DNA from: a virus
Taxonomy: Duplodnaviria; Caudoviricetes
Strand: one strand, 5' to 3'
DNA length: 64,000 nt
Virus record (IMG/VR): IMGVR_UViG_3300024272_000023
Under the pieces are notes generated by a model. The model ran no database searches. It saw only the letters and a program-made list of their open reading frames with translations, and was not told where the DNA came from. The translations under genes and the position numbers were made by a program. Shown in pieces: positions 13-64,000 of the stretch (position 1 is the first letter of the stretch; each line of letters starts with the position of its first letter).

Positions 13-28
13 ACAGTACAAAATGATT
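13..28 (+). repeat. 16-bp motif ACAnnRCAAAATGATT, copy 1
   Basis: ACAGTACAAAATGATT. Confidence 0.85.
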
Positions 29-55
29 GTACAATAATTTGGAAAGGATTGTAAT

Positions 56-361
56 ATGGAAGAAACGACAAATATGTCTGCGGTTATTGACGAAATCAAG
101 AGTGCAGATGAAGAGAGTCTGCGTAAGGTTATCGAAGGCTGGTTCGAAAGTACTCGCACAGACGGTATGAAAATTGGAGCTCAGTTTATAGCCGCAGGGG
201 TAATGGGCAAATTCAAGAAGCATCTTGAAAAGCCGGGCAAAATTAGTTTGCGAGACTATGAACGTTGTATTGCGGATATTAAGAAGATGCTCTTAGTACA
301 GCTTACAAAACAAAATGATTCAACAGAGAACAATGCCTCGGAGGAAGTTGCTAATGACTAA
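56..361 (+). CDS. hypothetical phage protein
   Basis: 101-aa ORF with AAGGA RBS, and TATAAT at 3-8 upstream. It overlaps the next gene. Confidence 0.8.
   Translation: MEETTNMSAVIDEIKSADEESLRKVIEGWFESTRTDGMKIGAQFIAAGVMGKFKKHLEKPGKISLRDYERCIADIKKMLLVQLTKQNDSTENNASEEVAND
305..320 (+). repeat. 16-bp motif, copy 2
   Basis: ACAAAACAAAATGATT. Confidence 0.85.
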
Positions 362-1118
362 TAAAGAGAAGATTTCTCTGTTTGAAAAAGAAATCGATTA
401 TATGGAGATCGAAAACATTAAAGATTTCTTCAAAAAGGCAATAACGCTTGTGCCCGATTACTTCTTTGAGGTTCCGGCGTCCTCTTCTGGTAAGTTTCAT
501 AGCGGCCTTGAATGTGGCTTTGGCGGTCTAGTGTATCACACTAGATCCGTCGCCAAGGTTGCAAATTATCTTGTTAACTTACAGCAGTATAAAAGCAAGT
601 TAAATGAGGTCGAGAAGGACTGTGTAATTTGTGCTGCACTGTTACACGATTGTCTGAAACACGATTGGGAGAATAAGACTGGTTTCTCAGTGCATCAGCA
701 TCCAGTACTCGCTGCAGAATTTGTCAAGACTGATGAAAGACTCAATGGAATTGTCAGTGATGAAATTAGAGTTATCATTGGTGATGCCGTTGCTAGTCAC
801 AGTGGCGAATGGACTACAAGCAAGAGAAGTAAGGTAGTATTACCTTCTCCTCAGACGCTCGTACAGGAGCTCGTGCACCTCAGCGATTATATTGCAAGCC
901 GTGGTGATATTCACATTCTGTTTGAAGGCGAAGATAGTAAACCAAAGTTGCCCGACATCAATGAATATAAGTTGAATTTTGGCAAACATAGCGGCAAGAC
1001 TATCACCGAGATTGCTGTCGTAGATAGAGGTTGGCTTGTTTGGGCCCAGGAGAATTTAACTAGAGAGCCATTACTTACTATGATTAAGAAATATTTTGAA
1101 GAGGAGGACGAAATATGA
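354..1118 (+). CDS. HD-domain phosphohydrolase with C-terminal FGKHxGK module
   Basis: H...HD...H...D motif (YHTRSV, ALLHDCLK, HQHP, SHSG, HLSDY); C-terminal KLNFGKHSGKTITEI..WLVW. Start moved from 315 to ATG 354, which follows GGAGG. Confidence 0.85.
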   Translation: MTNKEKISLFEKEIDYMEIENIKDFFKKAITLVPDYFFEVPASSSGKFHSGLECGFGGLVYHTRSVAKVANYLVNLQQYKSKLNEVEKDCVICAALLHDCLKHDWENKTGFSVHQHPVLAAEFVKTDERLNGIVSDEIRVIIGDAVASHSGEWTTSKRSKVVLPSPQTLVQELVHLSDYIASRGDIHILFEGEDSKPKLPDINEYKLNFGKHSGKTITEIAVVDRGWLVWAQENLTREPLLTMIKKYFEEEDEI

Positions 1119-1453
1119 CAGTGATAGGCTGGACTGATGCATATACGACACAATATTCTGTCGTGCCTTTTACGAAGGAAAGAAGAAAAGCTCTTATAGA
1201 GAGAATTCGCAAGAGAAGATATAACTTTAATCATTTCGATCATGAAATGTTGGGTTGTGCTCCATTTTATGATGATAAAGTTATTTGTGTACTCAATAAA
1301 TCCCAATTCGATGACGTAATGTCAGAAGCATATGAAGAAATACCAAGAGGACAGAGACTTCTTCCGCAGGATGTTATCACAAGACCGGCAAAGAATGGCA
1401 TCTTGTTTGAAAAAGAAAAGTTTGAACAGGAAGGAGAACAGAACAATGGATGA
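1115..1453 (+). CDS. hypothetical phage protein
   Basis: 112-aa ORF with ATGA overlap to the previous stop and a GGAGG RBS. Confidence 0.75.
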   Translation: MTVIGWTDAYTTQYSVVPFTKERRKALIERIRKRRYNFNHFDHEMLGCAPFYDDKVICVLNKSQFDDVMSEAYEEIPRGQRLLPQDVITRPAKNGILFEKEKFEQEGEQNNG

Positions 1454-1598
1454 AGTTAGAACTTTCGGATACTGCGAAAATTGCGGTGACCCTGTTACGG
1501 ACGAAGGCGAAGAATATTACGTAAATGACGACGGCGAAGTATTTTGTTGTCTTGAGTGTGCATTAGAACACTGCGGCGTGACTAAAATAGAGCTTTGA
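1446..1598 (+). CDS. small Zn-finger protein
   Basis: CENC...CCLEC; AAGGAG RBS before ATG 1446 (the track start at 1332 is over-extended). Confidence 0.7.
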   Translation: MDEVRTFGYCENCGDPVTDEGEEYYVNDDGEVFCCLECALEHCGVTKIEL

Positions 1599-1599
1599 G

Positions 1600-5997: not shown

Positions 5998-6013
5998 ACA
6001 ATACAAAATGATT
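5998..6013 (+). repeat. 16-bp motif, copy 3
   Basis: ACAATACAAAATGATT. Confidence 0.85.
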
Positions 6014-6029: not shown

Positions 6030-6332
6030 ATGGGAAATAAACATGCATTATACATATGCCCTTATTGTAAGGGGGCGCACGAAACACCTGGCGGTCTTGC
6101 TCGTTGTATTTTAGACTGCGAGGAAAAGAAGAAAATTGAAGAGGAAATGGCCAAGAAAGCTAAGCTCGACGCGGAAAAGGAAGCTCGTAAGAAGGAAGTG
6201 GATAACGCTATCGAAAAGTGCAGAGAGCTTGTTAAGGCATATATGCACGACTATGGCATTTACTCATATACATCAGATGACGATGATATAAATCCGCTTT
6301 TCAGTTCTAAGTTTTGGAATTGGGTTTGGTAA
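6030..6332 (+). CDS. hypothetical protein (N-terminal Zn finger plus coiled coil)
   Basis: CPYC..H..C..C followed by a charged helix; AAGGAG RBS. Confidence 0.75.
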   Translation: MGNKHALYICPYCKGAHETPGGLARCILDCEEKKKIEEEMAKKAKLDAEKEARKKEVDNAIEKCRELVKAYMHDYGIYSYTSDDDDINPLFSSKFWNWVW

Positions 6333-8260: not shown

Positions 8261-8280
8261 TACCAATAGAGGTGATTATA

Positions 8281-10218
8281 ATGGTAATAGGATATGCACG
8301 TCTATCAAAAGACGACCTAAGAAAAAAATATGTGTCAATTGAAAACCAAAAAGATATTATTAACAAATATGCAAAAGAACACGGTCTTGTTGTAGATGAA
8401 ATATATGAAGATGATGGATATACTGGATACACCATGGATAGACCTGCGTTTAATGAGATACAACATCTAATTGACGAAAACTTAGTTGATGTACTTTTAG
8501 TTAAAGACTTATCTAGACTCGGAAGACATAATGCAGGCGTTCTACTTATTTTAGAAAGACTTAGAAAACATGGTGTTAGGATTATCATGATTGATGATAA
8601 TTATGATAGCGAAGTGGATGACGATGATATTGTTGGAATTAAAACTTGGTATAATGAAAGATATGTAAAAGACGGAAGTAAAAAAGTACGTAATGCCATG
8701 AAAAATATGCAAGAGAATGGCAATCTTATAATGAGCGTTCCCTATGGATATATTAAAGATCCGTATGTAAAAACAAAATATTACATAGATGAAGAGGCTG
8801 CCATATGGGTAAAAAAAATATTTGAAACATATGCAGATGGCGGTGGATATAAAAAGACTGCAAAAATACTTAATGAAATGGGGGCACCAACTCCAAGTAT
8901 GTTGCTTGACCGCCGCAAGAAAGAAAAGGGAATAGTATCTAAAATAAAAGTGGCAAACGGATGGGAAACAAATGCTATTAGAAGGATTATTCAAAATGAT
9001 TTCTATATTGGAACATTAAGATTAAGAAAAACAATTAGAAATGGAATCCATGGCGATCAAAAGCATCTTTCAGAGGAAGAACAACACGTCTTTGAAAATG
9101 CACATCCTCCGATAATTTCACTTGAATTATTTAATTTAGTACAATCTATCAATGAAAGAAGAAGAGAGAGCAATGCATACAAAGGCACAAGAAAATACGA
9201 TAATTTGTACGGAGGATTATTATTCTGCGGAGACTGCGAAAGCTCTTTAACAGTCGCTCATTATAACGATGAGGGAATTACTTCATATGCTTGTAGAGTA
9301 TATAGAGAAAGAGGTGTGTCTGCTTGTTCCGCGCACAGCATTAATAAAAAAGAACTTGATTTAATTGTGCAAGATTATCTAATATTATGCAGAAGTGCAA
9401 TGAAAAGTATGATTGAATCATTAGATAGTATAATGTACGAGCAATTGAAGCAAAGTAATGGCAAAGATAAAAAGCTAAAAATGATTAAAGAAAATATTAA
9501 AAACGCACAAGAAGAATTAAAAATTATAATGCAACAAAAAATTAGAGATATTAAAGATGCCGGGGGCGACCCTACAATGACAGAAATGATTGCGCAGACA
9601 TATGACGAAATTCGAAAAGAAAAGTTAAATAAAATTAATAATTTACAGGCCCAAATTAATGAATATGAAAATATGGATAAAAACAGAAGTAATATAAAAC
9701 GTAACTTTACAACGGCATTAGGTTTATTTGATGAAATTATCAACTCGCCAAAAATAAGTAAACGACAATTAGAAACTTTAGTTGAAAAAATATATGTATA
9801 TGAAGACCAATATATTGAAGTACGACTTCGTGGAGAATTAGGAAATATTTTTGAGGACCAAACTATTATGAGAATGTCAAAAGAAGATAGAATAAAACGA
9901 ACTATCATAAATTATATTTCCAGTGTTAATAGTTTTGGGAAAATAAAACTTCTTAATGAAGTTCGTAAATATGATACTATCGCTAATTATGCTATAGTTC
10001 CTATAATAGATGAATTCATAGAAAAGGGTTTTGTTAAACAAACAGAGAAAAGACACAAGGCGGATCATCCTCCATATATCTGTATAGCGTCCAAAGATGA
10101 TATGCTGAGAGGTTTCAATATATGTACTGACATTGATACTATCTACAGATACTGTAACCTTAATGCACAATTCGAAACCATTATTAAGATTAATACATGG
10201 ATATCGAGATATCTATAA
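8281..10218 (+). CDS. large serine recombinase (integrase) with C-terminal extension
   Basis: GYARLS catalytic Ser, KDLSRLGR, PYGY, recombinase domain (Y.G..HPPII), Zn ribbon CGDC..C..C, coiled coil, LVEKIYV. Likely start is ATG 8281. Confidence 0.95.
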   Translation: MVIGYARLSKDDLRKKYVSIENQKDIINKYAKEHGLVVDEIYEDDGYTGYTMDRPAFNEIQHLIDENLVDVLLVKDLSRLGRHNAGVLLILERLRKHGVRIIMIDDNYDSEVDDDDIVGIKTWYNERYVKDGSKKVRNAMKNMQENGNLIMSVPYGYIKDPYVKTKYYIDEEAAIWVKKIFETYADGGGYKKTAKILNEMGAPTPSMLLDRRKKEKGIVSKIKVANGWETNAIRRIIQNDFYIGTLRLRKTIRNGIHGDQKHLSEEEQHVFENAHPPIISLELFNLVQSINERRRESNAYKGTRKYDNLYGGLLFCGDCESSLTVAHYNDEGITSYACRVYRERGVSACSAHSINKKELDLIVQDYLILCRSAMKSMIESLDSIMYEQLKQSNGKDKKLKMIKENIKNAQEELKIIMQQKIRDIKDAGGDPTMTEMIAQTYDEIRKEKLNKINNLQAQINEYENMDKNRSNIKRNFTTALGLFDEIINSPKISKRQLETLVEKIYVYEDQYIEVRLRGELGNIFEDQTIMRMSKEDRIKRTIINYISSVNSFGKIKLLNEVRKYDTIANYAIVPIIDEFIEKGFVKQTEKRHKADHPPYICIASKDDMLRGFNICTDIDTIYRYCNLNAQFETIIKINTWISRYL

Positions 10219-10353: not shown

Positions 10354-10393
10354 AAAAAAATAAGGACTACCAATTACGGTAGCCCTTATTTTT
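10354..10393. terminator. bidirectional terminator after tubZ
   Basis: AAAATAAGGACTACC-AATTAC-GGTAGCCCTTATTTT with A/T tracts on both sides. Confidence 0.8.
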
Positions 10394-11408
10394 ATCCATT
10401 TAATAACCCCATCAGCAAGTCTCTTGGGTTTGTAGGTGTAACTTGCTCTCTCGTAAATGATAACCCCTTTAGTGGTTCCAATGGTGCAAAATCTTGAATG
10501 AAATTACCACCATTCATATTCTTGACAGTTTCTTCGAACTTTATTCTAAATTTATTTAGAATCTTACTCGGAAACTGTAATCCTGAAATCATAGCAACAG
10601 AAGTTGAGTCAGAGATGCCTAAGTAACTGTCATAAACACCTTGAAATTCTCTAGTAATGTTAGTGATGTCCAGAGACCTGTTACTAGTAGAAAGTGCTAA
10701 GTACATCGCTGATTTTGAGGTAATTTCGGCATATATTCCATTGTGTAGAGCATCAAGAATGTCGGAGGCAGTACTGCGAGATTTGCTTAACTTTGCAAGT
10801 ACTGAAATACCATAGCAAGATAACATTTGTTTGCGCTCCGCTGGGTCGATCACCCCATATATACTATCATTCTTAAGATTAATAAAAGCATCAAGTTCTT
10901 TAGCGAATCTAGTGTTGATAGCAAACTTATCGTGTCTTGCATTGTCCAAAAGAAAGGTTGCTCCTAAATTTTTAATGTTCATAATTTCTACACATGTGTT
11001 ATAAGCATTTTCACACGCCTTTGCACTTTCGACCCTATCGTCTGGTAAAACAATTGCTGGTATACAAACTCTGCCTATTTGAGTTAGATATGTCATCAAT
11101 GGAATACTTAGCCCAGACCCCGTTCCTCCGCTTGAACTGAATGTACAAATAATGTATTTATGAGTCAAGATGGTAGTAATCTTATCTACAATATCCATAA
11201 TGTGCTCTGATGCCAACTGCAAAACTCTTTTTCTGTCACGCGCGGCCCCGTCCGCATTTGGGATGTGAATCTTGTGTGTTCCATTAATCGTTGCAAGATC
11301 GCTTTGACTTGAATTTACATAAACAGTAGTATAACCCAATCGCTCAAACTCGCGCCCGATATTTCCTCCACATTGTCCCAAAGATAAAACTCCAAATTGT
11401 TCACGCAT
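10392..11408 (-). CDS. tubZ: TubZ tubulin/FtsZ-family partition GTPase
   Basis: LGQCGGNI, VNSSQSD, GAARDR, SGGTGSG tubulin signature, LLDN; 338 aa; directly downstream of a wHTH gene, as in type III partition cassettes. Confidence 0.88.
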   Translation of the reverse strand: MREQFGVLSLGQCGGNIGREFERLGYTTVYVNSSQSDLATINGTHKIHIPNADGAARDRKRVLQLASEHIMDIVDKITTILTHKYIICTFSSSGGTGSGLSIPLMTYLTQIGRVCIPAIVLPDDRVESAKACENAYNTCVEIMNIKNLGATFLLDNARHDKFAINTRFAKELDAFINLKNDSIYGVIDPAERKQMLSCYGISVLAKLSKSRSTASDILDALHNGIYAEITSKSAMYLALSTSNRSLDITNITREFQGVYDSYLGISDSTSVAMISGLQFPSKILNKFRIKFEETVKNMNGGNFIQDFAPLEPLKGLSFTREQVTPTNPRDLLMGLLNG

Positions 11409-11696: not shown

Positions 11697-11765
11697 GTGC
11701 AATCACCACCATAAATTTATGATAGCACTTTGAAAGCACTATTGTCAAGCACCTTGACATCACTT
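11697..11765. repeat. candidate tubC iterons (11-12 bp direct repeats)
   Basis: TGATAGCACTT, TGAAAGCACTA, TTGTCAAGCACC and TTGACATCACTT in tandem (11720-11765), plus degenerate GTGCAATCACC at 11697-11707, upstream of tubR. Confidence 0.6.
11719..11748 (-). promoter_or_regulatory. sigmaA promoter of tubRZ
   Basis: Minus-strand TTGACA (11748-43)-18 bp-TATCAT, with TGn extended -10. Confidence 0.7.
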
Positions 11766-11782
11766 TTTTGTTTTATTATAAT
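11754..11782 (+). promoter_or_regulatory. consensus sigmaA promoter of the RHH gene
   Basis: TTGACA (11754-59)-17 bp-TATAAT (11777-82). Confidence 0.85.
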
Positions 11783-11800
11783 ATTTTTGAGGTGACACAG

Positions 11801-11953: not shown

Positions 11954-11985
11954 GGGAGCGGGCAAAGCCCACTCCCTTTAATTTT
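11945..11985. terminator. bidirectional terminator between the RHH gene and the late operon
   Basis: AAGGGAGCGGGC-AAA-GCCCACTCCCTT flanked by A and T tracts. Confidence 0.8.
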
Positions 11986-12292
11986 ATTTCGTATTGATTT
12001 TCTTTGTGGCAAGAACTATCGAATCGATTAGTTCACTTATTGCCTTTTCGTCAATATCGTACTGCAATGTGTTTTCCATTGCCTTAATAGACGATATTAC
12101 ATAATCTTTTCTTTCTGCCCCATTAGAATAATTCTGCTCAGCCTCAGCCATTAATTTGAGTACAAGCTGCACAACAGCTCCCAAATTCTTTTCTTTAATG
12201 GCCCTTTGAATATATTTTACCAACGATATGACCAATGGAATACAAGCTGTAATTCCTGACAAAATCGCTATAATTAATTCTAACCATGCCAT
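11984..12292 (-). CDS. holin (LL-H-like)
   Basis: N-terminal TM helix, AEAEQ..GAERKDYV pattern; last gene of the late operon. Confidence 0.75.
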   Translation of the reverse strand: MAWLELIIAILSGITACIPLVISLVKYIQRAIKEKNLGAVVQLVLKLMAEAEQNYSNGAERKDYVISSIKAMENTLQYDIDEKAISELIDSIVLATKKINTK

Positions 12293-12308: not shown

Positions 12309-12767
12309 TTAATCATTTTGTTGTGTATGATATGCTGGAAAACTTTGATTGTTATAATATCTTGTAATAAAATCAAATTCTTCATCACCTTCGTGATTCT
12401 GATGAAGAACATTTTTATACTTGTGATAAATAGTTCTAATGTGTTCCATTTCTTCTGGGTGTAATCTAATGCCACGACGACATCTATTTCCGCAATCAAA
12501 CAATTCTGCACGAATCCTATCTGATTCATTTTCCAAAACATTATTCTCAACACGCGTCAACCTATCCTCTAGACATTGATTAACTTCTAATAATTTATCT
12601 ATTTTCTTATCCATCTTATCTATTTTTTCATCTCTTTTTGTATCTTTAGATTTTCTAACAAACGAATCAATAAGACGCTGTCTAAGTGGCTTAATGATTG
12701 TAATCAATAACGCTATACAAGCAGAGATACAACCAACTATTGTGGCTATATTCTTAAATACTTCCAT
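12309..12767 (-). CDS. membrane-anchored coiled-coil protein (lysis-cassette associated)
   Basis: One N-terminal TM, a coiled coil and a Y..Y....N motif; precedes the holin. Confidence 0.65.
   Translation of the reverse strand: MEVFKNIATIVGCISACIALLITIIKPLRQRLIDSFVRKSKDTKRDEKIDKMDKKIDKLLEVNQCLEDRLTRVENNVLENESDRIRAELFDCGNRCRRGIRLHPEEMEHIRTIYHKYKNVLHQNHEGDEEFDFITRYYNNQSFPAYHTQQND
12311..12326 (-). repeat. 16-bp motif, copy 4
   Basis: ACACAACAAAATGATT. Confidence 0.85.
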
Positions 12768-35993: not shown

Positions 35994-36009
35994 AATCATT
36001 TTGTATTGT
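35994..36009 (-). repeat. 16-bp motif, copy 6
   Basis: ACAATACAAAATGATT. Confidence 0.85.
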
Positions 36010-36031
36010 AGGGGCAGCTTCTGCCGCCCCT
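36010..36031. terminator. GC-rich stem-loop flanked by two 16-bp motif copies
   Basis: AGGGGCAGC-TTCT-GCCGCCCCT. A T-tract follows only on the + side. Confidence 0.6.
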
Positions 36032-44321: not shown

Positions 44322-44870
44322 TTATGATATTTTATTGCAGAAGTCTAAAAACATCTGCTCAATTTCCTCTGTTGTGATGCCATATTCCGAAAGACCTTTA
44401 GGGACTTTCTTCATAGGTTTACGGCAAATTGCCTTGATGTGTTCAAGGTTAGTGTTAATGCCTATATGGATAGTTGAATACTGAATATGACCATAAGGTG
44501 TTGCACTTAGACCACTAATTTTGTATCCGTCAATGAGAACATCATTATCTTCATAGGTTGCTTTCAGACCTCTCTTCTTATATTGTTCGATAAGGTAATC
44601 AGCAAATCTGTGCATCCACTTATCACCAATAGCACCGAAGTGAACAACACTCACATCACCTTCACTCACTACTACAACGCCACCTGTGTGTTGAGTATTG
44701 AGTACAGTGTAGCCTTCGTTATCACATACCTCTCTGTCAATAGAGTCGGGGTCGGTCATAAAAATGGATTTTTCATCGTGAACACAATAGGCAATGCCGT
44801 GTTCTTGATTTGTGATGAAATGTTGAATTGTTGATATAGCTTCATTACTCTTTACTTTTTTAATGTTCAT
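44322..44870 (-). CDS. lipoate-protein ligase (BPL/LplA/LipB) fold protein
   Basis: HTGGVVVVSEGD, NDVLIDGYKISG (conserved Lys), IHIGINTN. Confidence 0.7.
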   Translation of the reverse strand: MNIKKVKSNEAISTIQHFITNQEHGIAYCVHDEKSIFMTDPDSIDREVCDNEGYTVLNTQHTGGVVVVSEGDVSVVHFGAIGDKWMHRFADYLIEQYKKRGLKATYEDNDVLIDGYKISGLSATPYGHIQYSTIHIGINTNLEHIKAICRKPMKKVPKGLSEYGITTEEIEQMFLDFCNKIS

Positions 44871-46333
44871 TATGCTTCCTCCGTAATCTTATCTGCATAA
44901 GTAGTTCCAAATGCAGATTTGTATGCTTCAGCACAACCTTTAGGGACAATAATTTGACTAACAGTATAACTACCATTACCTAAAGCATGTGTACCACCTA
45001 AATTAGGTGGAGTAGTAGAAAGAAAATGGAAAATCTTTTTTGCTGAGCTTGCCAAACCGTAAAAAGCACTGTTGCCTATTTTAGTTACTGTTGAAGGAAT
45101 TGTAACGTATGTCAGTGCCGTTGCATTTGCATTACCCCCTGAAAAGGCATCTTCACCTATCACAGTAAGCCCTTCGGGAAGAGATAAGCTTGTTAAACTA
45201 CTACAACCATCACAAAAACCTTTAGGAATTTCGAGTATACCACTAGGGATAGACATACTTGTTAAGGCTCTACAGTCCTCAAACATTCTTTCACCTAAAA
45301 CAGCGCCCTGGGGGATTGTAACGCTTGTTAGAGGGTTATAAAGGAAAGCTCTTGAACCCCAAGTTTTTACTGTTGTAGGTACAGTGATACTTTGTAGTTC
45401 ATTATATGCAAACGCACTACTGCCAACACTTGTAAGACTTGCAGGGAAATTAACACTAGTAATAGCGTTATTATAAAAAGCTTGTTCTCCTATAGATTCT
45501 ACGCCATTTGGTATTGTGTAACTACCTGACACTTTGACAAGTGCTGTAATTAACTCTTTACCGTCCTTATTAAGAAGTAAGGCACCGTCAGTAGAGTATG
45601 TCTTGTTGTTAGGGTCAATGGAAACATTAGATAGGTTTGTGCCATTAAAAGAGCTATAGGAAATACTTTTAACAGAAGCAGGAATGTGAATGTGTGATAA
45701 TGATGTACAACTGTCGAAAGCTGAATCACCTATAGATTCAAGGTTTTCACCAAGTTCCACGTTGTTTAGATTTGTACACCCGCCAAAAGCTCGCTTTCCT
45801 ATTGTTTTCAGGTTCTTGCCTAATACAACGCTCGTTAATAAAGAATTGTTCTCAAAAGCAAATTGAGGTATAGAGGTCGCCGAACCTGTGTCTTCAATAC
45901 CTATAACACATCTGCAATATGTGGTGTCATCTTTTGAAATGTTATAACTGCTGGTAGAAAATGCTGCACAATCTCCTTCAATCATCAGTGTTCCACTTGA
46001 AGGTGTTGCCACACTATCACTAGCACCTTTGAAAGTTCCGAAAAATACTTGTTGTGCACTAGGTTCTGCTGTACCACTTGTATCTGAAATAGGCTTTTGT
46101 ACACCACCATAAGTAACTCTAACTTTTCCGTTGGGTTTAGGATAAATGTCAAGTAATATAAACTCTTCGTTTGGGCGTGTTGTACCACCTGAGTAGGTAT
46201 CGGAAGTGATTTTCTTAACCTCTAAAACAGCAGGCCCACCTAAACTCCACAGAATACGTCCTGCATTATCAGTAATCAGTGTTACTACACCTTCGGGAAT
46301 GTCAAGGCCTTGCAATGTAGCAAAATCAATCAT
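44870..46333 (-). CDS. BspA-type leucine-rich repeat protein
   Basis: About 12 repeats of LxSxxIPxxVxxIGxxAF. Confidence 0.9.
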   Translation of the reverse strand: MIDFATLQGLDIPEGVVTLITDNAGRILWSLGGPAVLEVKKITSDTYSGGTTRPNEEFILLDIYPKPNGKVRVTYGGVQKPISDTSGTAEPSAQQVFFGTFKGASDSVATPSSGTLMIEGDCAAFSTSSYNISKDDTTYCRCVIGIEDTGSATSIPQFAFENNSLLTSVVLGKNLKTIGKRAFGGCTNLNNVELGENLESIGDSAFDSCTSLSHIHIPASVKSISYSSFNGTNLSNVSIDPNNKTYSTDGALLLNKDGKELITALVKVSGSYTIPNGVESIGEQAFYNNAITSVNFPASLTSVGSSAFAYNELQSITVPTTVKTWGSRAFLYNPLTSVTIPQGAVLGERMFEDCRALTSMSIPSGILEIPKGFCDGCSSLTSLSLPEGLTVIGEDAFSGGNANATALTYVTIPSTVTKIGNSAFYGLASSAKKIFHFLSTTPPNLGGTHALGNGSYTVSQIIVPKGCAEAYKSAFGTTYADKITEEA

Positions 46334-47832: not shown

Positions 47833-50800
47833 TTAATGTATCATATATGTTACTGAGGTAATACTTGTTAAGTCAACATTTCCTAAATTAAATCTCAACT
47901 CCCAGTTATTATTTGTAGTGCTACCGGTGCCTGAAATATATAAATAATTTTTTATCATCTTGTTGCTACTATTAAGTGCAGTAGTTAAGACATAATATGA
48001 CTCTATCTTATTATTATCAGCAGTAATAATAGGAAGATATAATGGAAAAGTATTGATTAGAGAACGACCACTAGTTTGTTTTATTTCAGCTGTAATGAAA
48101 TAGTGTTTTCCATGTGGTACTCCACTTATAATTGTAGAGGCACTAAAATCACTATAAACTGGGTCGGGATTCCTGTCTTCTCCTACTTCGTGTATAAGCG
48201 AAGTTAACTTAAGCCCTGGGTCTAAAATTCCACTTGATAATTTTGCTTCAAGATTATCAAAATTCTTCTGTAACGTATTGTAAGCAGAAGAATCAACCTT
48301 ATTGGTATTTAACTTATTATATAGTCCATCTGCATAAGTTTTCACTGCCTCATCTTGAGAATCAATATAATCTTTAGTAACTTCAGAGCCTTGAATTTCA
48401 GCGAATTTTGCATCAACATAGTCTTTAATTGCTGACTTATAACCCCATTCAATTGCACATTGAGCTCTATTCCATCCATCATTCCAATTAATTGGCTTAG
48501 ATGGAGCTTCACAGTAAATAGCAAATCCAAGAACAAAAGAATTAGTAAATACTGTACTTCCCATAGTTTCAACACTAGCAGGAATAACTATACTGTTTAA
48601 ATTTCCGCATCCAGCGAATGCGCCAAAACCTATGTTAGATACATTATTACCAATAGTACAATCAGTAAGAGAAATACAATCTGCAAATGCACGTTCACCA
48701 ATAGTAACTATTGTATCTGGAATTTTAACACTTGTAATTGCTCCATTTCCATTAAAAGCATCATCGCCAATAATGGTAACTTTTTTGCCATTATAAAAAG
48801 CAGGAATAATAAGGTTCGTATCAGAACAAGTACCAATACCAGTAAGTGTATAAGTTCCATCTTGATTTAAAGCGTATTCAAGACCTTCGCTTGCACCTGG
48901 GGTAAAAGCATTAGTAATTGTATCATTAACGTATCCTTTATTTACTAAAATACTTGCACCACTGGCTTCTGATACATTACCTTGCAATTCGCCGTTTTCA
49001 TTTGCAAGAGGAATGTAACAAACCGAATCTTCTATAACGTTAAATATATTATTTTCTTCAGTGATAGCTACACTTTCATCATAAACTTCAAAATAATTAT
49101 TTACAAAAGCCTCATCTTCAAATGTTATCTTATTTGCAAAGGGCATTGTTAAACTACCACTATTTACAAATAAGATATTATCCATATTAACAATTGTTGC
49201 TTTTTTATTTATGCGCCAATCAATGTAAGTCAAATCTTTGGTAGAAGTTGTAGCTGCAGTACTGTAATAACAGTTAATATTAGAAGCAACTTCAATATCA
49301 TTTACTAATACAGTAAGCGTAGATTGGTTACCAGCCCTATGATAGTAAAGTTTAAGATTAAACCATTCATTATAAGGTAATTCACAAATCGTATCAGAAC
49401 CAGTTCCTCCTGAGCCAGTGTTATATTGAAGTAAAGTCAATACATCGTTGGATAGCTGAAAAGCTAGACCAAATAAATAAGTTTGTGAACTTCTGAATAT
49501 TATTTCGGACATTCTTAAGCTACTTGAGCTATTATATTTTAGGTCTAATGACAAAAGAGAATATTCACCTACACCATTCATGAGTTTTATACGAGATATT
49601 GCACGAGTGGTTGCAGAATTTGCGTTAATATTCAATACTTTACTTTTTATAGATTGAGAAGCAACTGGATACTGTTTTGTAGTAGAATTATAATTATCAG
49701 CATATCTTTTAGCAGTGTCTAATGTATCATTTATAACCGTAACTGCATCACTATACTTTTGATCAGCATATTTAGCAGCAGTACTAACGGCTTGACTTGC
49801 TTTGTTGTCAGCCTCTGTAATTGCATATTCAATAGCAGTATCTACATATTTTTTAGACATTGCTCTCTGATTCTCATCATAGTTATCATCCCCAACAGCA
49901 GGCTGAGATTCACCATAGTTGCTAACAGGAACTCTTAAGAAACCATCATCCATTCTTAAAGGAACACTATCCATCATCTTGTTTTGAGCAAAATCTTCTG
50001 GATCAGGATCACGAGGCCCAAAAGGATTAGGAGACAATGTTACTCTACGATTAATGCCTTTACCATTTGATCTATCCACATAAACGCGATTATAAGAATC
50101 TGCAAAACCTTTCTTCGCATTACTATAAGGGACAGGCGAACCTAATAAGTATCTATATCCAATAGCACCTTCAACCGCCTCCCATGAAGCTGTAGCTCCA
50201 TCTTCACTAATAGTTACAACAGGTGTTGGTAAATATTGAGGATGTCCTCTTTCTGCCGACTCCATAGGGCTACCATCTTCATTGATAAAACTATATGAAC
50301 TGTCGTAGTATTCAGAATTACTATCAGCAAGAGCACAAACCATAATTGAATTACCATTAAGTTCTACAGTCAGCGTTTCTGATGTTACTTCTACTGGAGT
50401 GCTCTTTATATAATAGACGCGATTATTATCTTCTTCTCCATCAAAAGTTCTCATAAGAGAAACTTTATTTGAGCTAACTTCTTCTAAAGATGCATCAACA
50501 TACTTTTTATTAACAGCATCCAAATCTTCTTTAGGCTCTGCTGTCTTAATAATACCATTTTCACGAAGAGGAATTTGATAAGGGTACATTAATTCCCCAT
50601 CTTCATAAGCTTCATTTATAGAGTGAGATATTAAATGCAGTTCATAAGCATCCTTACCATCTCTTCTTTGTACGGTATATGCGAAATGTCCATCTCTTTC
50701 AGGAGTAGGTAATTTTTCATCAACTATGCTATTTGTAAGTTCAATCCATTCATTTTGATAAGAGTATATTTTTGTCTCTAATAGCAATCTAATAGTAGCA

Positions 50801-51375
50801 TCATTGGGATCTTCACTAATATTGTTGATTACTCCATCATAACTCCAACCTGCAATAGGAAGTAATTGTGTTGCATTATACCAACCAGGTATGACTGTTG
50901 TTCCTGCTAATTGGCTAAAACCAGCAGCTAATGTTTCATCAAGATAGCCATACACTTCGCCATCACTTAAATCATAGTATGCGGTAATGGCGGTTCTTTC
51001 GAGATTTGTTGCAGGTTCTCCAATTTCAGGTCTATTGTCTACGATATAGCATTTTGAGTTATCTACAATATGGCGATTGTGAATAAATGTTGCTTTAAAT
51101 AATCTATAAAGTGCCTTTTCATCTATATTTTCTGTTGGAAGTTCATCAATTACATCCTGAATTGATGAAACATATTCTTTAATTTCATCTAAAGACATTC
51201 CGGTTAATGTTTCTGCGTCTTTAGCATTAATTTGTTTTCTTTGCAGTTTACCGTCTGCATCGGTATAATCTATGTGGAACGTGCCGTCGTCTACACAAAA
51301 ATATGCATATCCATCGTGTAATGGTTGAGTTTCTAATGACGCACGGTTTCCTCGAAATGGTTTCCAAAGTGCCAT
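47833..51375 (-). CDS. multidomain fibre/adhesin with BspA LRR
   Basis: FRGNRASL..DGYAYF N-terminus, NKKYVD linkers, lectin-like beta region, GIGTCSDTNLIIP..IGDDAF repeats. Confidence 0.8.
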   Translation of the reverse strand: MALWKPFRGNRASLETQPLHDGYAYFCVDDGTFHIDYTDADGKLQRKQINAKDAETLTGMSLDEIKEYVSSIQDVIDELPTENIDEKALYRLFKATFIHNRHIVDNSKCYIVDNRPEIGEPATNLERTAITAYYDLSDGEVYGYLDETLAAGFSQLAGTTVIPGWYNATQLLPIAGWSYDGVINNISEDPNDATIRLLLETKIYSYQNEWIELTNSIVDEKLPTPERDGHFAYTVQRRDGKDAYELHLISHSINEAYEDGELMYPYQIPLRENGIIKTAEPKEDLDAVNKKYVDASLEEVSSNKVSLMRTFDGEEDNNRVYYIKSTPVEVTSETLTVELNGNSIMVCALADSNSEYYDSSYSFINEDGSPMESAERGHPQYLPTPVVTISEDGATASWEAVEGAIGYRYLLGSPVPYSNAKKGFADSYNRVYVDRSNGKGINRRVTLSPNPFGPRDPDPEDFAQNKMMDSVPLRMDDGFLRVPVSNYGESQPAVGDDNYDENQRAMSKKYVDTAIEYAITEADNKASQAVSTAAKYADQKYSDAVTVINDTLDTAKRYADNYNSTTKQYPVASQSIKSKVLNINANSATTRAISRIKLMNGVGEYSLLSLDLKYNSSSSLRMSEIIFRSSQTYLFGLAFQLSNDVLTLLQYNTGSGGTGSDTICELPYNEWFNLKLYYHRAGNQSTLTVLVNDIEVASNINCYYSTAATTSTKDLTYIDWRINKKATIVNMDNILFVNSGSLTMPFANKITFEDEAFVNNYFEVYDESVAITEENNIFNVIEDSVCYIPLANENGELQGNVSEASGASILVNKGYVNDTITNAFTPGASEGLEYALNQDGTYTLTGIGTCSDTNLIIPAFYNGKKVTIIGDDAFNGNGAITSVKIPDTIVTIGERAFADCISLTDCTIGNNVSNIGFGAFAGCGNLNSIVIPASVETMGSTVFTNSFVLGFAIYCEAPSKPINWNDGWNRAQCAIEWGYKSAIKDYVDAKFAEIQGSEVTKDYIDSQDEAVKTYADGLYNKLNTNKVDSSAYNTLQKNFDNLEAKLSSGILDPGLKLTSLIHEVGEDRNPDPVYSDFSASTIISGVPHGKHYFITAEIKQTSGRSLINTFPLYLPIITADNNKIESYYVLTTALNSSNKMIKNYLYISGTGSTTNNNWELRFNLGNVDLTSITSVTYMIH

Positions 51376-58326: not shown

Positions 58327-58329
58327 AAT

Positions 58330-58854: not shown

Positions 58855-59921
58855 TAACCAATCACCTCCACGCTAACTTCTGCGGTCGAACCATCAGTAC
58901 CAACAACCTGAATGATAAGCACCTTTCCTATTAGATAGTAATTCTGTGCAACCTTAATCTTAAGCAACTCGCCACTATACTCAATGGTGTAATTTTCCGT
59001 ATCAGAGGAGACGTCTCCATTCTCGTCGCTAATAAGCCACGACTGTGCGGCCACTCCCTCGTTGCTGAAGGCGGGCGTAAAGGTTTTGAAGCTTCCACCG
59101 ACTTTGATTGTAGCAGCAATTCCAGAATAAGTTATTGCGGCAGTGCCAGCAAGTTCGGTCTCAATGTCGGGCTCAACAGGTTCGACGGTGCTATCATAAT
59201 AATTTGCAAGCATAAGCTCGGCATTATCATGAGTGGGATCGAACGTTTGTTGACTCAATACAAATTTGGTGATGCCTAACGGCATTGTATCAATAATATT
59301 ACCAACACTAAAACACAAGGGCGTTTTACGCCCATAATCAGAAATTAAAAACCTCTGTTTGTGGTCGATTAACTGAGTGTCTATATTAGTAGACATCCAA
59401 GCTATTGCATTGCCGTTGACAACGGAGGTATACGAATTTTCGTCCACCTCTCTAGTTGAACTGCCTTGACGCAAAATTCCAAGATGGTAATAAATCTTAC
59501 CTTCAGATACCCATCCAAACTTCCAATTGCATTCGGCAATGTGATATTGCCTGAAAGCTGGACGCTCATCCAATCCAAGAATCATCCACCACTTCCATTC
59601 GCCATCTTCGTCTGCCATATATACATATGAACCGACGCCAATATCAGGATTGCGCTTTTCAGCACCGTGACGGAATTGGAGGTGATAAGCTGGCTCGTCC
59701 GAACCAACCTTTTGGTAGGTGTCAACATTAAACTTAACATCAATAAGTTCATGTTTGTCTGTCACTGTGGGTAAACCACGAGTGGCTTTAACCACATAGA
59801 CTCGTCTCGCATTTGGATCATTCATCCAAGTTTGCTCAATAACCATATTGGACTGCATACGGAGCATTTCACTTTGAGTCGAGCCCATATGAGCCATACG
59901 GCTTTTGTAATGGTCAAACAT
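58854..59921 (-). CDS. head-closure protein with C-terminal Ig-like domain
   Basis: GSYV..WMI..AECNW beta barrel; IKVGGSFKTFT Ig-like C-terminus. Confidence 0.6.
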   Translation of the reverse strand: MFDHYKSRMAHMGSTQSEMLRMQSNMVIEQTWMNDPNARRVYVVKATRGLPTVTDKHELIDVKFNVDTYQKVGSDEPAYHLQFRHGAEKRNPDIGVGSYVYMADEDGEWKWWMILGLDERPAFRQYHIAECNWKFGWVSEGKIYYHLGILRQGSSTREVDENSYTSVVNGNAIAWMSTNIDTQLIDHKQRFLISDYGRKTPLCFSVGNIIDTMPLGITKFVLSQQTFDPTHDNAELMLANYYDSTVEPVEPDIETELAGTAAITYSGIAATIKVGGSFKTFTPAFSNEGVAAQSWLISDENGDVSSDTENYTIEYSGELLKIKVAQNYYLIGKVLIIQVVGTDGSTAEVSVEVIG

Positions 59922-60216
59922 TGGAATCACCACCCTTTAAAGTGTCTACCAAATTGGCAGCATCAAGGATGCACTTTCGGAACTGTATTGGATTTTGACG
60001 TGCGGTTTCCAGATTGCTCACAATAGTAAGCACCTCGGGCTGGAAACCAAATAAAACATTTGAGCCGAGGATTTGATTAATTAAGGTTTGAATTGTTGCA
60101 TCTAAAAAAGGACTGTTATCCTCTTTAAGGTATAAACAATTAATTATTGCGCCATAGAAATAGCGCTTTTGTTTTTCAATTTGATTCGACGGTACATTTT
60201 CATAAACATTTCTCAT
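59914..60216 (-). CDS. hypothetical protein
   Basis: GAGGTG RBS; overlaps the next gene; FRKCILD motif. Confidence 0.7.
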   Translation of the reverse strand: MRNVYENVPSNQIEKQKRYFYGAIINCLYLKEDNSPFLDATIQTLINQILGSNVLFGFQPEVLTIVSNLETARQNPIQFRKCILDAANLVDTLKGGDSNV

Positions 60217-60227
60217 AGTAATGCACC

Positions 60228-60650
60228 TCAATCATTGAAATAGTCGTTGTTTAAATATGTTCCACGACAGAAAAGCAGGTCAGCATCTTTACGAAGCTGT
60301 TCGTCAAGCGCACGCATTTCTGCAAGCTGATTTGCTTGAGCATAGTACTTAGTTTCTTTGCCCGAATAGACCTGTTGTGTAAGCGTAACCGACCTAATCT
60401 GTGGAGCAAGCCAGCCGCGAACCATATGTATGGAAAGTATTTTCTGGTCTCTATCGGAGATGTCAAAGTTGAACTGCTTCAATTCTTCGTCTCTATCAGA
60501 GAAGTCATACTCGCCAACCACGGGTTCAACGATGGCATCCATTAGCCAATCGTGGAGCATAGTTTCGAGATCCTCTTCTGGCAATTGAGCTAAAAGAGGA
60601 TCTGTAATTTGTGCCAGTGCACGGTCATACAATATTGTATAGGAAGTCAT
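60228..60650 (-). CDS. head-tail adaptor (connector) protein
   Basis: Helical 140-aa protein, TSY..LYDRAL..ITD, two genes after the capsid gene. Confidence 0.6.
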   Translation of the reverse strand: MTSYTILYDRALAQITDPLLAQLPEEDLETMLHDWLMDAIVEPVVGEYDFSDRDEELKQFNFDISDRDQKILSIHMVRGWLAPQIRSVTLTQQVYSGKETKYYAQANQLAEMRALDEQLRKDADLLFCRGTYLNNDYFND

Positions 60651-60668
60651 CTAGGACACCTCCCTATA

Positions 60669-61226
60669 TTAGTTAATCATCATCATCAGTTCCGTCTTCA
60701 GAGTTTCATCGATAGCTCTGATAATTCTAAGGTCGTAAAGCGTGCCATCCTGAATCATAGCATAAGCCATATTCTGCACGGTAGTCTTCATACCTACAGG
60801 AAGTTTCTTAAGCTGAGCAATAAACTGTCTCTGAGGAAGTTTGAACATTGCCTTAACATCAATATCCTGAAGGTCAGCATAAAGTTTACCAAGGTCTGCC
60901 TTCCACTCTTCAACAATAGTCTCGTCCTCGATAATAATCATAGGCTCGAAAAGATACTTGTGACGCTGAGCCTTCCAGGACAGAAGGTCTTGGTATTCTA
61001 CATCTGCAACATCACCCTCATTTAGCCATTTATATGGAGTATGAGTCTTAGGTCCAATAAGAATAAGCTCGCCGAATTTAACACTTCTACAAGTGATATA
61101 TTCATTAGGGTCGTGCTTAACGACCTTTGCGGTTTTCTTAGAGGTAGGTTCAGACTTAACTTCTTCAACGGTTTCAGTTTCGATAATCTCGTCAGTTTCA
61201 ACTGTTGATTTTTTTGTATTTGCCAT
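60669..61226 (-). CDS. hypothetical protein downstream of the capsid gene
   Basis: AAGGAG RBS before ATG 61226; charged N-terminus. Confidence 0.7.
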   Translation of the reverse strand: MANTKKSTVETDEIIETETVEEVKSEPTSKKTAKVVKHDPNEYITCRSVKFGELILIGPKTHTPYKWLNEGDVADVEYQDLLSWKAQRHKYLFEPMIIIEDETIVEEWKADLGKLYADLQDIDVKAMFKLPQRQFIAQLKKLPVGMKTTVQNMAYAMIQDGTLYDLRIIRAIDETLKTELMMMIN

Positions 61227-61263
61227 AATAATTTCTCCTTTTTGTCTATATGTCAATTAAAGA

Positions 61264-62370
61264 TTATACAATCTCCCATACTCCAAAGACGGTGTTAAGA
61301 ATAACATTGATACCCATCTTATAGAGTACTTCGTACTCGTAGCTGAAATCTCTGTTAACATCTCTATCAGTAACCTGAGAAACCTGAGTTTCACCATAGT
61401 TAACAAGTTTGATGAAACGATTTGCTACGCTAGTAGGAATAATGTAAAGTCTATCGGTATCCATCTGATACTCAACAGATGCGCTGTTGATACCAGCACC
61501 TCTCTTAAGACCCTGACCGATTTCTGCAACAGCAAAGCCCTCGAAGTTGCCAAGAATACCTGCATTGTTGTAGTATTCCTTCTTAACTGACTCAGGAGCC
61601 CAATTTACATCAGCCATAGCAGTAAGAGAAGAAAGTGCGGTACGAGAACCGAAGATAGTAACCTCGGAATTGGTTGCCATAGAAATGTCCTGGCAAAGCT
61701 TTACAAGAGTTGTCTTGTTAGCGGCTTCAAGAGCACCGTTCTTAACCCAGTTTGCACCAAGGTTGTCCTTAGCGCCTCTAAGAGCTGCGTAAAGAGCATC
61801 GTAAAGATAACGGTTCATAGCCTCAGCAACCTTAGCAACGAAGGACGCCCAATCCTCAGCACCAGTGAGAATTCTTTCAAAATCAGAATAGATCTTTAAG
61901 CCATACCACTCACCAGCTACGGAGAAGTGTCTGCCTCCTGCAAGTCTCTGACGAATCATGTTGTGGTGGTTACCAGAAACCTTGGATACGCTAAGAATAG
62001 CGTCGTCTTCAACATAGAAGTCATTCTCGTCGCCGAGAGCAAGGTTCTTAACTTCAACGAACTGCATGAAGAAAGGATTCTCCATCCAGCCAGTTATCAT
62101 AAGTTCCTCGATAGTTTCCTCAATAAGAGTGAATACGAGATCCTTGTTAGCGCGAATTGCACGCTTGATTGCCTGAGGTCTGTCAGTAGGCTCAATACCA
62201 AGAGCAGCTCTGAACTTCTCAACAATCTTCTTATTAGCTTCCTTAGCGGAAACTTCCTTTACCTCGCCACGAGCAGCGTCGGAAAGGAGCTCACTGAAGT
62301 GAACGAGATTCTCATTGTCGTTCTCGAAAGCATTCTGAACAGTAGTATTAAAAGTCATTAAATTCTTCAT
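61264..62370 (-). CDS. major capsid protein
   Basis: About 368 aa, strong codon bias, FVEVKNLALGDENDF..SGNHHNMIRQRL, position after scaffold and decoration genes. Confidence 0.85.
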   Translation of the reverse strand: MKNLMTFNTTVQNAFENDNENLVHFSELLSDAARGEVKEVSAKEANKKIVEKFRAALGIEPTDRPQAIKRAIRANKDLVFTLIEETIEELMITGWMENPFFMQFVEVKNLALGDENDFYVEDDAILSVSKVSGNHHNMIRQRLAGGRHFSVAGEWYGLKIYSDFERILTGAEDWASFVAKVAEAMNRYLYDALYAALRGAKDNLGANWVKNGALEAANKTTLVKLCQDISMATNSEVTIFGSRTALSSLTAMADVNWAPESVKKEYYNNAGILGNFEGFAVAEIGQGLKRGAGINSASVEYQMDTDRLYIIPTSVANRFIKLVNYGETQVSQVTDRDVNRDFSYEYEVLYKMGINVILNTVFGVWEIV

Positions 62371-62393
62371 AATCATTTCCTCCTTTCACTTAA

Positions 62394-62864
62394 TTACGCA
62401 ACAGTGTAACCGTCAGCATAAGATACGGTAGCTCCAATTGCGGGAACCTCGCCGCCAAATGCGTCAACAGATACGGTAAATACATCGTGCTTGTACATAG
62501 GGTACATTCTTGCTCTGTCACCCTCTGCATTGTAGTAGTTTGCGATATCCTGATATACCTTCAAGAAATCGTTAGGCATAGTTTCGGGATTGTGAACGAA
62601 ATAGCCCTCGCAGTCCTTGGTAAGCTCAAATCTAACCATAGTGCGACCAGGGTGATTAACAATCTCAATTACCTTTGCTTCAAATTCGCCAGCGAAGTCG
62701 CTAACAGTGTAGTACTCGCCTGCCTTGTACGCGCCAACAGCAACGATTTCGCCGTTGTCTCTGTCCTTATCCATCTCACCAGAGAGGATATGACCTGTGC
62801 CATAAACAGCAGAAACTCTAGAAATTTCTGCGACCCAGTGCTTATTTAAAAGATCCTGTGCCAT
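62394..62864 (-). CDS. capsid decoration/cement-like protein
   Basis: DNG.IVAVG..RMY.M...DVF.VS pattern; lies between scaffold and capsid genes; same codon bias as the capsid gene. Confidence 0.6.
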   Translation of the reverse strand: MAQDLLNKHWVAEISRVSAVYGTGHILSGEMDKDRDNGEIVAVGAYKAGEYYTVSDFAGEFEAKVIEIVNHPGRTMVRFELTKDCEGYFVHNPETMPNDFLKVYQDIANYYNAEGDRARMYPMYKHDVFTVSVDAFGGEVPAIGATVSYADGYTVA

Positions 62865-62941
62865 AAGTTTTTCCTCCTAAAAATAAATTTTGTTTTTAAT
62901 TTGATATTAAAAAAGAGCATCTTTTTAAACACCCTTAGTTT

Positions 62942-62957
62942 AATCATTTTGTGTTGT
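62942..62957 (-). repeat. 16-bp motif, copy 8
   Basis: ACAACACAAAATGATT. Confidence 0.85.
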
Positions 62958-62959
62958 AA

Positions 62960-64000
62960 TTAATCAAAAAGCTTACCATAAGCCTTTTTCTTCTTGTCGT
63001 TCTTCGTTTCTACACTGAAACCAAGAACCTTCGGCTTCTTCTTGCCGTCATCCTGAACACTAAACTCCATCTTAGACTTCATATGTGCGGCAAAGATAAG
63101 ATCTGCCTTTGTAGAGATTTCCTCAACAGAATAGTTGTCCATCTCGGTTCTAAGCTGTGCAAACTCGGCGTTGTCAGCAAGACACTCATATTCTGCCTTG
63201 TCGAGAATATCAGTCTTCTTAGCCTTAACAACGGAAGCGTCATACGTTTCCTTGAAGGCTTTTAGTTCATTATACTGAACTTCAAGAGCAGAATAATCTT
63301 CTCTCAACTTCTCGATGGCAAGTTTCTCAGACTCAGAAACAATAATCTCAAACATTTCCTGTCTGTCGCCTTCAAGAGCAACGTTTTCACCATCTACAGT
63401 ATATCCAACCTTATACAATTTGTTATTGCACCATCCCTGCATATAGAAGTAATTATCATATACAGATCTAATGCTATACCATTCATTATCTTCCTCTTCA
63501 TATACACGGATAAGATTATACAGAGCGTATCTCACGTCCTCATGAGACAACTCCACGGTAAATGTCTTCGTAAACTTTTCGGGTTCACCAACATCGCCAT
63601 CCGCATCGTCTGTATCATCATTATTGTCTGCGTCATCGGAAGAGCCGTCATCGCTACTACTTGCTTCACCATCAGAGCCATCATCAGAACCATCGTTTCC
63701 AGCATTGTCGTCCGTAGCATTATCACCATTGCCATCCTCAAATACTTCTTTAAACTTTGCCTCAAGCTCTTCATCAGAAAGGCCTTCGACGTCAAATGTC
63801 ACATCTTCAACGGTTTTACCGTATTTTTCAAGTAAAGTTTCAAAAATATTCATTTCAACATTTCCTCCTTTCTGTATATTTGTATTGAAATTAGCCAAAG
63901 TTGTATTTAACCTGTCTAAAACCTCAATCATTTTGTTTTGATAGATAAATATCGGATCTTTATGGCAGAAATCAGAAATATCTGCCCTCGCGCCCAACAT
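62960..64000 (-). CDS. prohead protease/scaffold protein, C-terminal part (5' truncated by the window)
   Basis: Acidic low-complexity linker, FTVELSHEDVR, coiled coil, basic C-terminus YGKLFD. Strong internal RBS with ATG at 63853. Confidence 0.7.
   Translation of the reverse strand: MLGARADISDFCHKDPIFIYQNKMIEVLDRLNTTLANFNTNIQKGGNVEMNIFETLLEKYGKTVEDVTFDVEGLSDEELEAKFKEVFEDGNGDNATDDNAGNDGSDDGSDGEASSSDDGSSDDADNNDDTDDADGDVGEPEKFTKTFTVELSHEDVRYALYNLIRVYEEEDNEWYSIRSVYDNYFYMQGWCNNKLYKVGYTVDGENVALEGDRQEMFEIIVSESEKLAIEKLREDYSALEVQYNELKAFKETYDASVVKAKKTDILDKAEYECLADNAEFAQLRTEMDNYSVEEISTKADLIFAAHMKSKMEFSVQDDGKKKPKVLGFSVETKNDKKKKAYGKLFD
63926..63941 (-). repeat. 16-bp motif, copy 9 (one mismatch)
   Basis: TCAAAACAAAATGATT. 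Confidence 0.65.

Follow-up and report, generated by a model that had tools for sequence, protein, structure and literature searches.

Gene arms and box copies of the window

The window considered here is a stretch of 64,000 nucleotides (nt) from IMG/VR virus record IMGVR_UViG_3300024272_000023 (Duplodnaviria; Caudoviricetes), in which a 16-bp motif, hereafter the box, is dispersed over two converging gene arms. The plus arm is composed of nucleotide metabolism genes, encoding an HD hydrolase, a ThyX fragment, a guanylate kinase, NT5C, NrdD with an activase, and a dUTPase, and these are followed by a serine recombinase (8272-10218). The TubZ gene (10392-11408) is found on the opposite strand, and from 12.3 kb onwards a minus-strand structural arm harbors tail-fibre proteins, a tape measure, a protein of 2606 amino acids (aa), BspA-type leucine-rich-repeat proteins, and a capsid-like gene. 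The window belongs to an SPbeta-like siphophage of ~160-170 kb, and a Megablast search of two of its parts against the INPHARED phages revealed no match among cultured phages. The statements that go beyond the window rest on IMG/VR relatives, of which G001-G005 are whole.

A search with the pattern ACANNRCAAAATGATT, allowing at most one mismatch and using dinucleotide shuffles of the window as background, recovered eight exact copies of ACAnnRCAAAATGATT and one copy with a single mismatch, exactly the same nine sites listed in a preliminary description made from the letters alone. They are located at 13, 305, and 5998 on the plus strand and at 12311, 31839, 35994, 36039, 62942, and 63926 (the mismatched copy) on the minus strand, and the shuffled sequences contained on average 0.17 such hits, with a maximum of two. 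The 10-bp core, which had been estimated to occur less than once by chance in the window, was found 11 times against 0.56 expected; the extra core-only copies, at 8992 and 41677, do not have the ACA part and look like chance. When two mismatches were admitted, only two further hits appeared against 1.5 expected. All nine copies were co-oriented with the genes, on the plus strand up to ~8 kb and on the minus strand from 12.3 kb, as had been described. The flip of orientation described at the integrase/TubZ locus simply marks the point at which the two gene arms converge.

Copy 1 (ACAGTACAAAATGATT; 13-28, plus strand) coincides approximately with position +1 of a sigma-A-type promoter and precedes the ATG at 56 by 27 nt. 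The TATAAT -10 hexamer previously reported ahead of it was found 4 nt upstream (3-8, plus strand), and the -35 would fall outside the window. This TATAAT-N4-ACA register recurs in G001, and the sites orthologous to copy 1 in G001 and G002 are identical at 16/16 positions, within flanks that are 74-75% identical. Copy 2 (305-320, plus strand) lies in the 3′ part of the open reading frame (ORF) 56-361, where it encodes T-K-Q-N-D, and is followed after ~33 nt by the GGAGG that belongs to the HD-domain gene. Copy 3 (5998-6013, plus strand) is intergenic and without a promoter; a GGAG follows its end after 4 nt, and the ATG at 6030 after 16 nt. This copy is conserved at 16/16 positions in G001 and 15/16 in G002.

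The remaining copies are found on the minus strand. Copy 4 (12311-12326) constitutes the last codons (T-Q-Q-N-D-stop) of ORF 12309-12767, 18 nt before a small gene (11984-12292), and copy 5 (31839-31854) is inside the tape-measure ORF 30271-34836, with no gene start after it; 16/16 positions are kept at the orthologous position of G001, in flanks that are 82% identical. Copies 7 (ACAATGCAAAATGATT; 36039-36054) and 6 (35994-36009) bracket a G+C-rich hairpin (36010-36031, minus strand; -18.9 kcal/mol, z -4.1) that is not followed by a T-run. Copy 7 supplies the last codons (T-M-Q-N-D-stop) of the gene for the 2606-aa protein, and copy 6, directly after the hairpin, is 30 nt before the ATG of gene 35391-35963. 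Copy 8 (62942-62957), conserved at 16/16 positions in G001 and 14/16 in G002, is upstream of a weak terminator-like hairpin (z -2.1) and 77 nt before gene 62394-62864, which comes ahead of the capsid-like gene (61264-62376). Copy 9 (TCAAAACAAAATGATT, with its one mismatch; 63926-63941) is ~75 nt before a GGAGG-ATG and, read in the same frame as S-K-Q-N-D-stop, probably also ends a gene.

It had been noted that seven copies precede start codons by 16-77 nt, and these distances hold; likewise, the peptide T-x-Q-N-D is encoded at 305, 12311, 31839, and 36039, being C-terminal at 12311 and 36039. As for the stem-loops mentioned near copies 7 and 8, the one between 36039 and 35994 is strong and the one after 62942 is weak.

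The box in related genomes

In each of the five whole relatives, k-mer counts showed the box to be the most over-represented 10-mer, with 21-45 copies per relative. The top 10-mer was ACAAAATGAT in G001 and G002, ACAAAGTGAT in G004, and ACAAAATTAA in G003 and G005. When whole records were searched for the ATGATT-type box with at most one mismatch, 45 copies were found in G001, 35 in G002, and almost none in G003 and G005, while G004 presented 24 copies, nearly all as ACAnnACAAAGTGATT. The variant of another relative, G006, was ACAAAATAATT, and that of G007 was ATGATT. The 3′ half of the box varies by phage, reading ATGATT, ATAATT, GTGATT, or ATTAA. The conserved block comprises 16-19 bp, is asymmetric and not palindromic, and is dispersed over the genome.

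Considering the window and the five relatives, 157 of the 158 exact core copies were co-oriented with the local genes. About 62% of the copies were fully intergenic in genomes that, by crude ORF calls, are ~91% coding, and where window sites could be aligned with G001, identity was complete over the box (64/64 columns), versus 79% in the flanks. The interpretation in the preliminary description is borne out in part: its core proposal, that of a phage-specific cis-signal read by a phage protein, is supported, and an operator was already among its candidates.

Three promoter contexts were distinguished. In about one third of the copies (type a), the box begins a fixed few bases past a good sigma-A -10, with a spacing of 4 nt in the phages of the ATGATT and GTGATT variants and of 1 nt in those of the ATTAA variant; many of these promoters present a perfect TTGACA -35, and the box then spans approximately +1 to +16. 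In a few copies (type b), the ACA of the box is the end of TTGACA, and the box fills the spacer. About 40% of the copies (type c) are without a recognisable promoter, overlapping the last codons of the upstream gene, to which they supply the TAA or TGA stop, and ending 0-12 nt ahead of the GGAGG of the next gene; hairpins come after some of them, and a few are internal to long genes. Altogether, ~62% of the copies end at most 12 nt from a Shine-Dalgarno (SD) sequence. Conversely, 7 of the 8 perfect TTGACA-N16-18-TATAAT promoters of G001, and 10 of the 13 in G003, have the box at fixed offsets. Of the window copies, the first is of type (a) and the other eight are of type (c), and no convincing sigma-A -10 or -35 was found inside or upstream of the promoter-less copies.

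A role of the ATG within the box in an upstream ORF was discarded, since this triplet is absent from the ATTAA variant. In G001, two boxes (19885 and 147252) are directly followed by similar sequences (ATGGYRAATGATATRGTCT...) without an SD, the box at 147252 being provided with a strong promoter of its own; these repeated sequences may represent a small repeated ORF or a non-coding RNA.

A candidate reader of the MrpR/SroF family

Taken together with the protein comparisons presented below, these observations suggest that the motif probably serves as operator box for a repressor of the MrpR/SroF (YopR) family that the phage itself encodes. It would most likely be the counterpart, in a new phage clade, of the described SPBRE/Phi3TRE element, and not a new kind of signal. 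The preliminary description had not recognised the motif as a described element; in kind, it matches the boxes of the MrpR/SroF repressors (PMC10516654; 10.1101/2025.11.27.690993).

A single MrpR-like gene was found in all five whole relatives, where it adjoins a true tyrosine integrase, and MrpR-like proteins were also found at 46 IMG/VR loci. The candidate repressor of G001 has 316 aa (82725-83672, minus strand), with a weak match to Pfam MrpR_N_CB, a BLASTP value of 4e-9 against SPbeta YopR, and YopR/MrpR as the best PDB sequence matches (E ~8e-8). SPbeta YopR and phi3T SroF can both be aligned with it from end to end, and its identity to the SPbeta repressor is only ~21%. An AlphaFold2 model of this protein (predicted local distance difference test, pLDDT, 81) presented Phi3T SroF-DNA (9rd5), MrpR (8a0a), and YopR (8bj6) as its best fold matches, with E values from 3e-10 to 3e-9, against 6e-5 or weaker for true recombinases. 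In the genome to which the window belongs, a shared-word look-alike of the MrpR-like gene, and only that, was found ~43 kb before the window.

The promoter of the MrpR-like gene harbors an inverted pair of boxes over the -35 and the spacer in 5/5 genomes, which is the only inverted pair in each of them; in G002, its reverse partner corresponds to the sole anti-oriented exact copy among the 158. This configuration has the classic look of an autoregulated repressor and would make no sense for a polymerase promoter.

The relatives also encode a YonO-like single-chain RNA polymerase of 944 aa (125768-128602, plus strand, in G001; 24% identity to SPbeta YonO, BLASTP 1e-22), and the repressor and the polymerase could be separated by comparing eight relatives in pairs. 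Pairs with the same box showed 47-71% identity between their MrpR-like proteins, while the identity of their YonO-like proteins went down to 44%. In pairs with different boxes, MrpR-like identity was at most 48%, and YonO-like identity reached 79%. The YonO-like proteins are 76% identical between G001 and G004, 79% between G002 and G004, and 69% between G006 and G007, all pairs in which the boxes differ, whereas G001 and G007 share the box with a YonO-like identity of 46%. SPbeta and phi3T present the same configuration, with YonO proteins 98% identical, repressors 29.5% identical, and unrelated boxes. Since the variant separates by MrpR-like and not by YonO-like identity, the box appears to follow the repressor; box specificity, also followed over the 46 IMG/VR loci, changes with the repressor class. 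Moreover, the variant is common to every copy of a genome, promoter-less copies included, so that one and the same protein should read them all. The residues at the DNA-reading positions of phi3T SroF are class-specific across the compared proteins, but these are too few for evidence.

Two described systems offer the closest comparison. MrpR binds SPBRE at ~10 promoter regions, as determined by chromatin affinity purification sequencing (ChAP-seq) and electrophoretic mobility shift assays (EMSA) (PMC10516654), and phi3T SroF is a monomer clamped on an asymmetric box of 24-26 bp with many genomic sites, forming phage-specific pairs of protein and box (10.1101/2025.11.27.690993; PDB 9rd5). The SPBRE derived here from the SPbeta sequence (tAGACAAAtACAAAtAATATGTATATAAT) occurs in 11 copies, each in or just after a sigma-A promoter and all gene-oriented. 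The phi3T box, at up to three mismatches, occurs in 19 copies, of which 18 share one strand in the early arm and the remaining one, on the yonP/yonO side, is flipped; all are gene-oriented, and several are just upstream of a -35. Judging from these sequences, strict polarity, asymmetry, a phage-specific sequence, and promoter overlap are traits of the family.

As in SPbeta, the boxes studied here are dispersed and asymmetric, belong to a large siphophage with YonO, a serine integrase, PolIII-alpha, and nucleotide-metabolism genes, go together with a homologous integrase-fold repressor, and overlap sigma-A promoters in the spacer or at +1 in the orientation of the gene. The sequences themselves (AGACAAAtACAAAtAATATGTAT for SPBRE and ACAnnACAAAATGATT for the box here) are of similar flavour, with a partial resemblance in ACA..ACAAA..ATG. 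However, SPbeta has ~11 copies, all at promoters of the early/lysogeny arm, whereas each genome here has 21-45, of which ~40% are promoter-less and some are found within genes and in the late structural arm; the register also differs, with +1 and not the spacer predominating. The likeness to Phi3TRE resides in the monomeric asymmetric site, in the specificity that differs between related phages, and in 9rd5 as the best structural match of the modelled repressor. In addition, 6 of the 19 phi3T boxes (KY030782; 54051, 59977, 82234, 87233, 111545, and 125068) are 1-4 nt before an SD with no obvious promoter, thus resembling the promoter-less copies here; we did not see such promoter-less boxes ahead of ribosome-binding sites (RBS) discussed in the cited SroF/MrpR literature. 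On the other hand, the phi3T box sequence is unrelated, and many phi3T boxes are upstream of the -35, in contrast with the 4 nt (or 1 nt) after the -10 observed here. The lambda CI operators are similar in that repressor sites lie over promoters and the repressor gene is autoregulated, but CI sites are short palindromes at two loci bound by cooperating dimers, unlike the single, asymmetric, genome-wide boxes described here.

The box statistics, polarity, conservation, covariation, registers, and inverted pair were observed directly; that the MrpR-like protein physically binds the box and represses is inferred, with the inverted pair at its own promoter as the only indirect support. In the proposed mechanism, a repressor with a tyrosine-recombinase fold, presumably not active in recombination, would clamp as a monomer on one long asymmetric site, which would explain why the box is non-palindromic and has lineage-specific variants. 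Bound to a box 4 nt past the -10, as in copy 1 of the window, or in the -35/-10 spacer, it would block the host sigma-A RNA polymerase, and lytic genes would in this way remain silent as long as the phage is carried as a prophage or plasmid. Box-free promoters, such as those of tubRZ and the ribbon-helix-helix (RHH) gene, would stay active; the genes needed in the carried state (tubRZ, RHH, and the integrase) are without the box. An annotation rule would follow, in which box-bearing promoters point to lytic genes and box-free promoters to genes of the carried state. The SroF/MrpR switch, a recent and unusual repressor type, would also be extended beyond the Bacillus phages and reach a large, uncultured clade of SPbeta-like phages of the gut, in which at least four natural protein/box specificity classes, 1-3 bases apart, would be material for studying how the integrase fold reads DNA.

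Several points weigh against this interpretation. About 40% of the copies, and eight of the nine in the window, have no recognisable sigma-A promoter, and promoter occlusion leaves these unexplained; their strict co-orientation and closeness to the RBS would fit an RNA-level or start-site role equally well. The SPbeta late operon is without boxes, whereas this phage has late boxes, and the conserved block of 16-19 bp is shorter than the 24-26 bp of the phi3T box. The repressor gene lies outside the window, the MrpR-like reader being known from the relatives. Finally, the covariation test comprises eight related, non-independent genomes, and its two thresholds of MrpR-like identity, 47% and 48%, nearly touch.

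As a speculative best guess for the promoter-less copies, they could form roadblocks or insulators that, depending on direction, keep read-through from reaching late genes, which fits their position adjoining hairpins at late-gene borders. That integrase-fold repressors have such a second mode, with oriented roadblocks throughout operons, including those read by a phage RNA polymerase, is a tentative idea that we regard as rather doubtful. If true, the repressor would silence a 160-kb genome gene by gene and not promoter by promoter.

Other readings and neighbouring features

The box could instead be, or double as, the promoter or start site of the YonO-like RNA polymerase, in which case the promoter-less copies before capsid, tail, and lysis genes would be late promoters. 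A YonO homologue is encoded by all relatives, the sequence of the YonO promoter is not known (PMC5467207), and related two-barrel RNA polymerases of phages use short phage-specific motifs (10.1101/2022.12.01.518664). In general terms, the promoters of phage RNA polymerases (T7-type, or the two-barrel enzyme of P23-45) resemble the box in being one-block, phage-specific motifs of ~16-23 bp present in tens of copies, gene-oriented, near gene starts, and varying between related phages. The promoter-less copies just upstream of late-gene SDs could be accommodated, with the start site having to be within or before the box. A box was also found 15 nt before the start of the YonO-like gene in G001 and G004, but not in G003 or G005. 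Nevertheless, the variant does not follow the YonO-like protein, several copies are 4-8 nt ahead of hairpins or terminators, the box occurs in a fixed register with host -10 elements, including copies at the host +1, and an inverted pair lies on the repressor promoter. Furthermore, a single promoter is used by SPbeta YonO (PMC5467207), and the late region in which this promoter lies has no SPBRE. We therefore consider this reading, and with it the phage sigma/activator promoter listed in the preliminary description, to be quite unlikely. A promoter of the phage RNA polymerase was the interpretation initially favoured, and it was dropped after the promoter-context analysis and the covariation test. 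No sigma factor or T7-type RNA polymerase was found by Pfam or PHROGs among the scanned proteins, the whole genomes not having been scanned for sigma families.

In SPbeta (AF020713), a segment of ~1.7 kb without an annotated gene (59153-60833, minus strand) separates yonN from yonK; the YonO start has been mapped there, and it has no SPBRE. No box-like sequence stands out in the ~200 nt upstream of yonK that are bracketed by the primer-extension primers, within which the exact start was not placed.

The box might also act in RNA, as an element of 5′ leaders or intercistronic regions near the RBS, through a phage factor for translation, processing, stability, or antitermination. The majority of copies ending close to an SD, as well as their presence on the sense strand, would agree with this; where a -10 is located 1-4 nt upstream, the first nucleotide of the host transcript would fall at or within the box, and most copies would be transcribed. 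However, some copies are in -35/-10 spacers and would be absent from the transcript of that promoter, the inverted partner at the repressor promoter is antisense, and hairpin folding analysis found no conserved RNA structure in the box. No candidate RNA-binding reader was found either, and the homologous phi3T boxes are bound as double-stranded DNA in the crystal structure (10.1101/2025.11.27.690993). An RNA-level role, including the antitermination site suggested earlier, is thus unlikely.

Small helix-turn-helix (HTH) or RHH dimers normally use short palindromes. An operator for another phage DNA-binding protein, for instance of the Xre or RHH type, with the MrpR-like gene as merely one of its targets, would take advantage of the many small unannotated proteins encoded by these genomes, and binding of the MrpR-like protein to the box is only predicted. 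The asymmetric site of 16-19 bp is unlike such palindromes, the variant separates cleanly by MrpR-like identity, and the RHH and TubR promoters of the window are box-free, which makes the TubR and RHH proteins, both earlier named as possible binders, unlikely readers; we assign a low probability to an operator of this kind. A KOPS/Chi-like polar DNA signal for replication, segregation, recombination, or packaging towards the integrase/TubZ convergence, also proposed before, would account for an orientation that flips exactly where the arms converge and is uniform in each arm, an observation that alone cannot separate transcription from arm polarity, but it is extremely improbable given the enrichment of the box in the ~8-9% of non-coding sequence and at gene starts, its fixed promoter register, its covariation with the repressor homologue, and its nature as a 16-mer found about once per 4-7 kb, unlike dense short skewed oligomers.

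Between the two arms, near-perfect sigma-A promoters stand back to back (11700-11790), TTGACA-17-TATAAT at 11754 on the plus strand and TTGACA-18-TATCAT at 11748 on the minus strand, on the tubRZ side and the RHH side. No box was found near these tubRZ/RHH promoters by the pattern search of the window with up to two mismatches. The same back-to-back arrangement was observed in G001, at 36414/36420.

Regarding the origin of the phage, the capsid-like protein matches 35 IMG/VR loci, the largest of the contigs having 173 kb, and relatives are found in bins of metagenome-assembled genomes (MAGs) from the gut, such as Faecalimonas. Related capsid genes were observed on MAG-bin contigs of 162,567 and 165,582 bp, one assigned to Faecalimonas sp. 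and the other to a Paludibacteraceae bin, which may be mis-binned. The phage-sized MAG contigs fit a free or plasmid-like state, alongside the TubZ cassette.

The tape-measure region (23837-34836, minus strand) is divided into two overlapping ORFs, 30271-34836 (1521 aa) and 23837-30301 (2154 aa), which match adjoining parts of the PHROG 4211 profile (positions 575-696 and 711-985, in this order). These ORFs may constitute one protein of ~3700 aa produced via a frameshift, or may have been split through a sequencing error. Finally, the BspA-type leucine-rich-repeat proteins are located within the tail-fibre cluster, at 44870-46333 and 47833-51375 on the minus strand, with Pfam LRR_5 matches at E values of 1.6e-69 and 1.2e-19, respectively.

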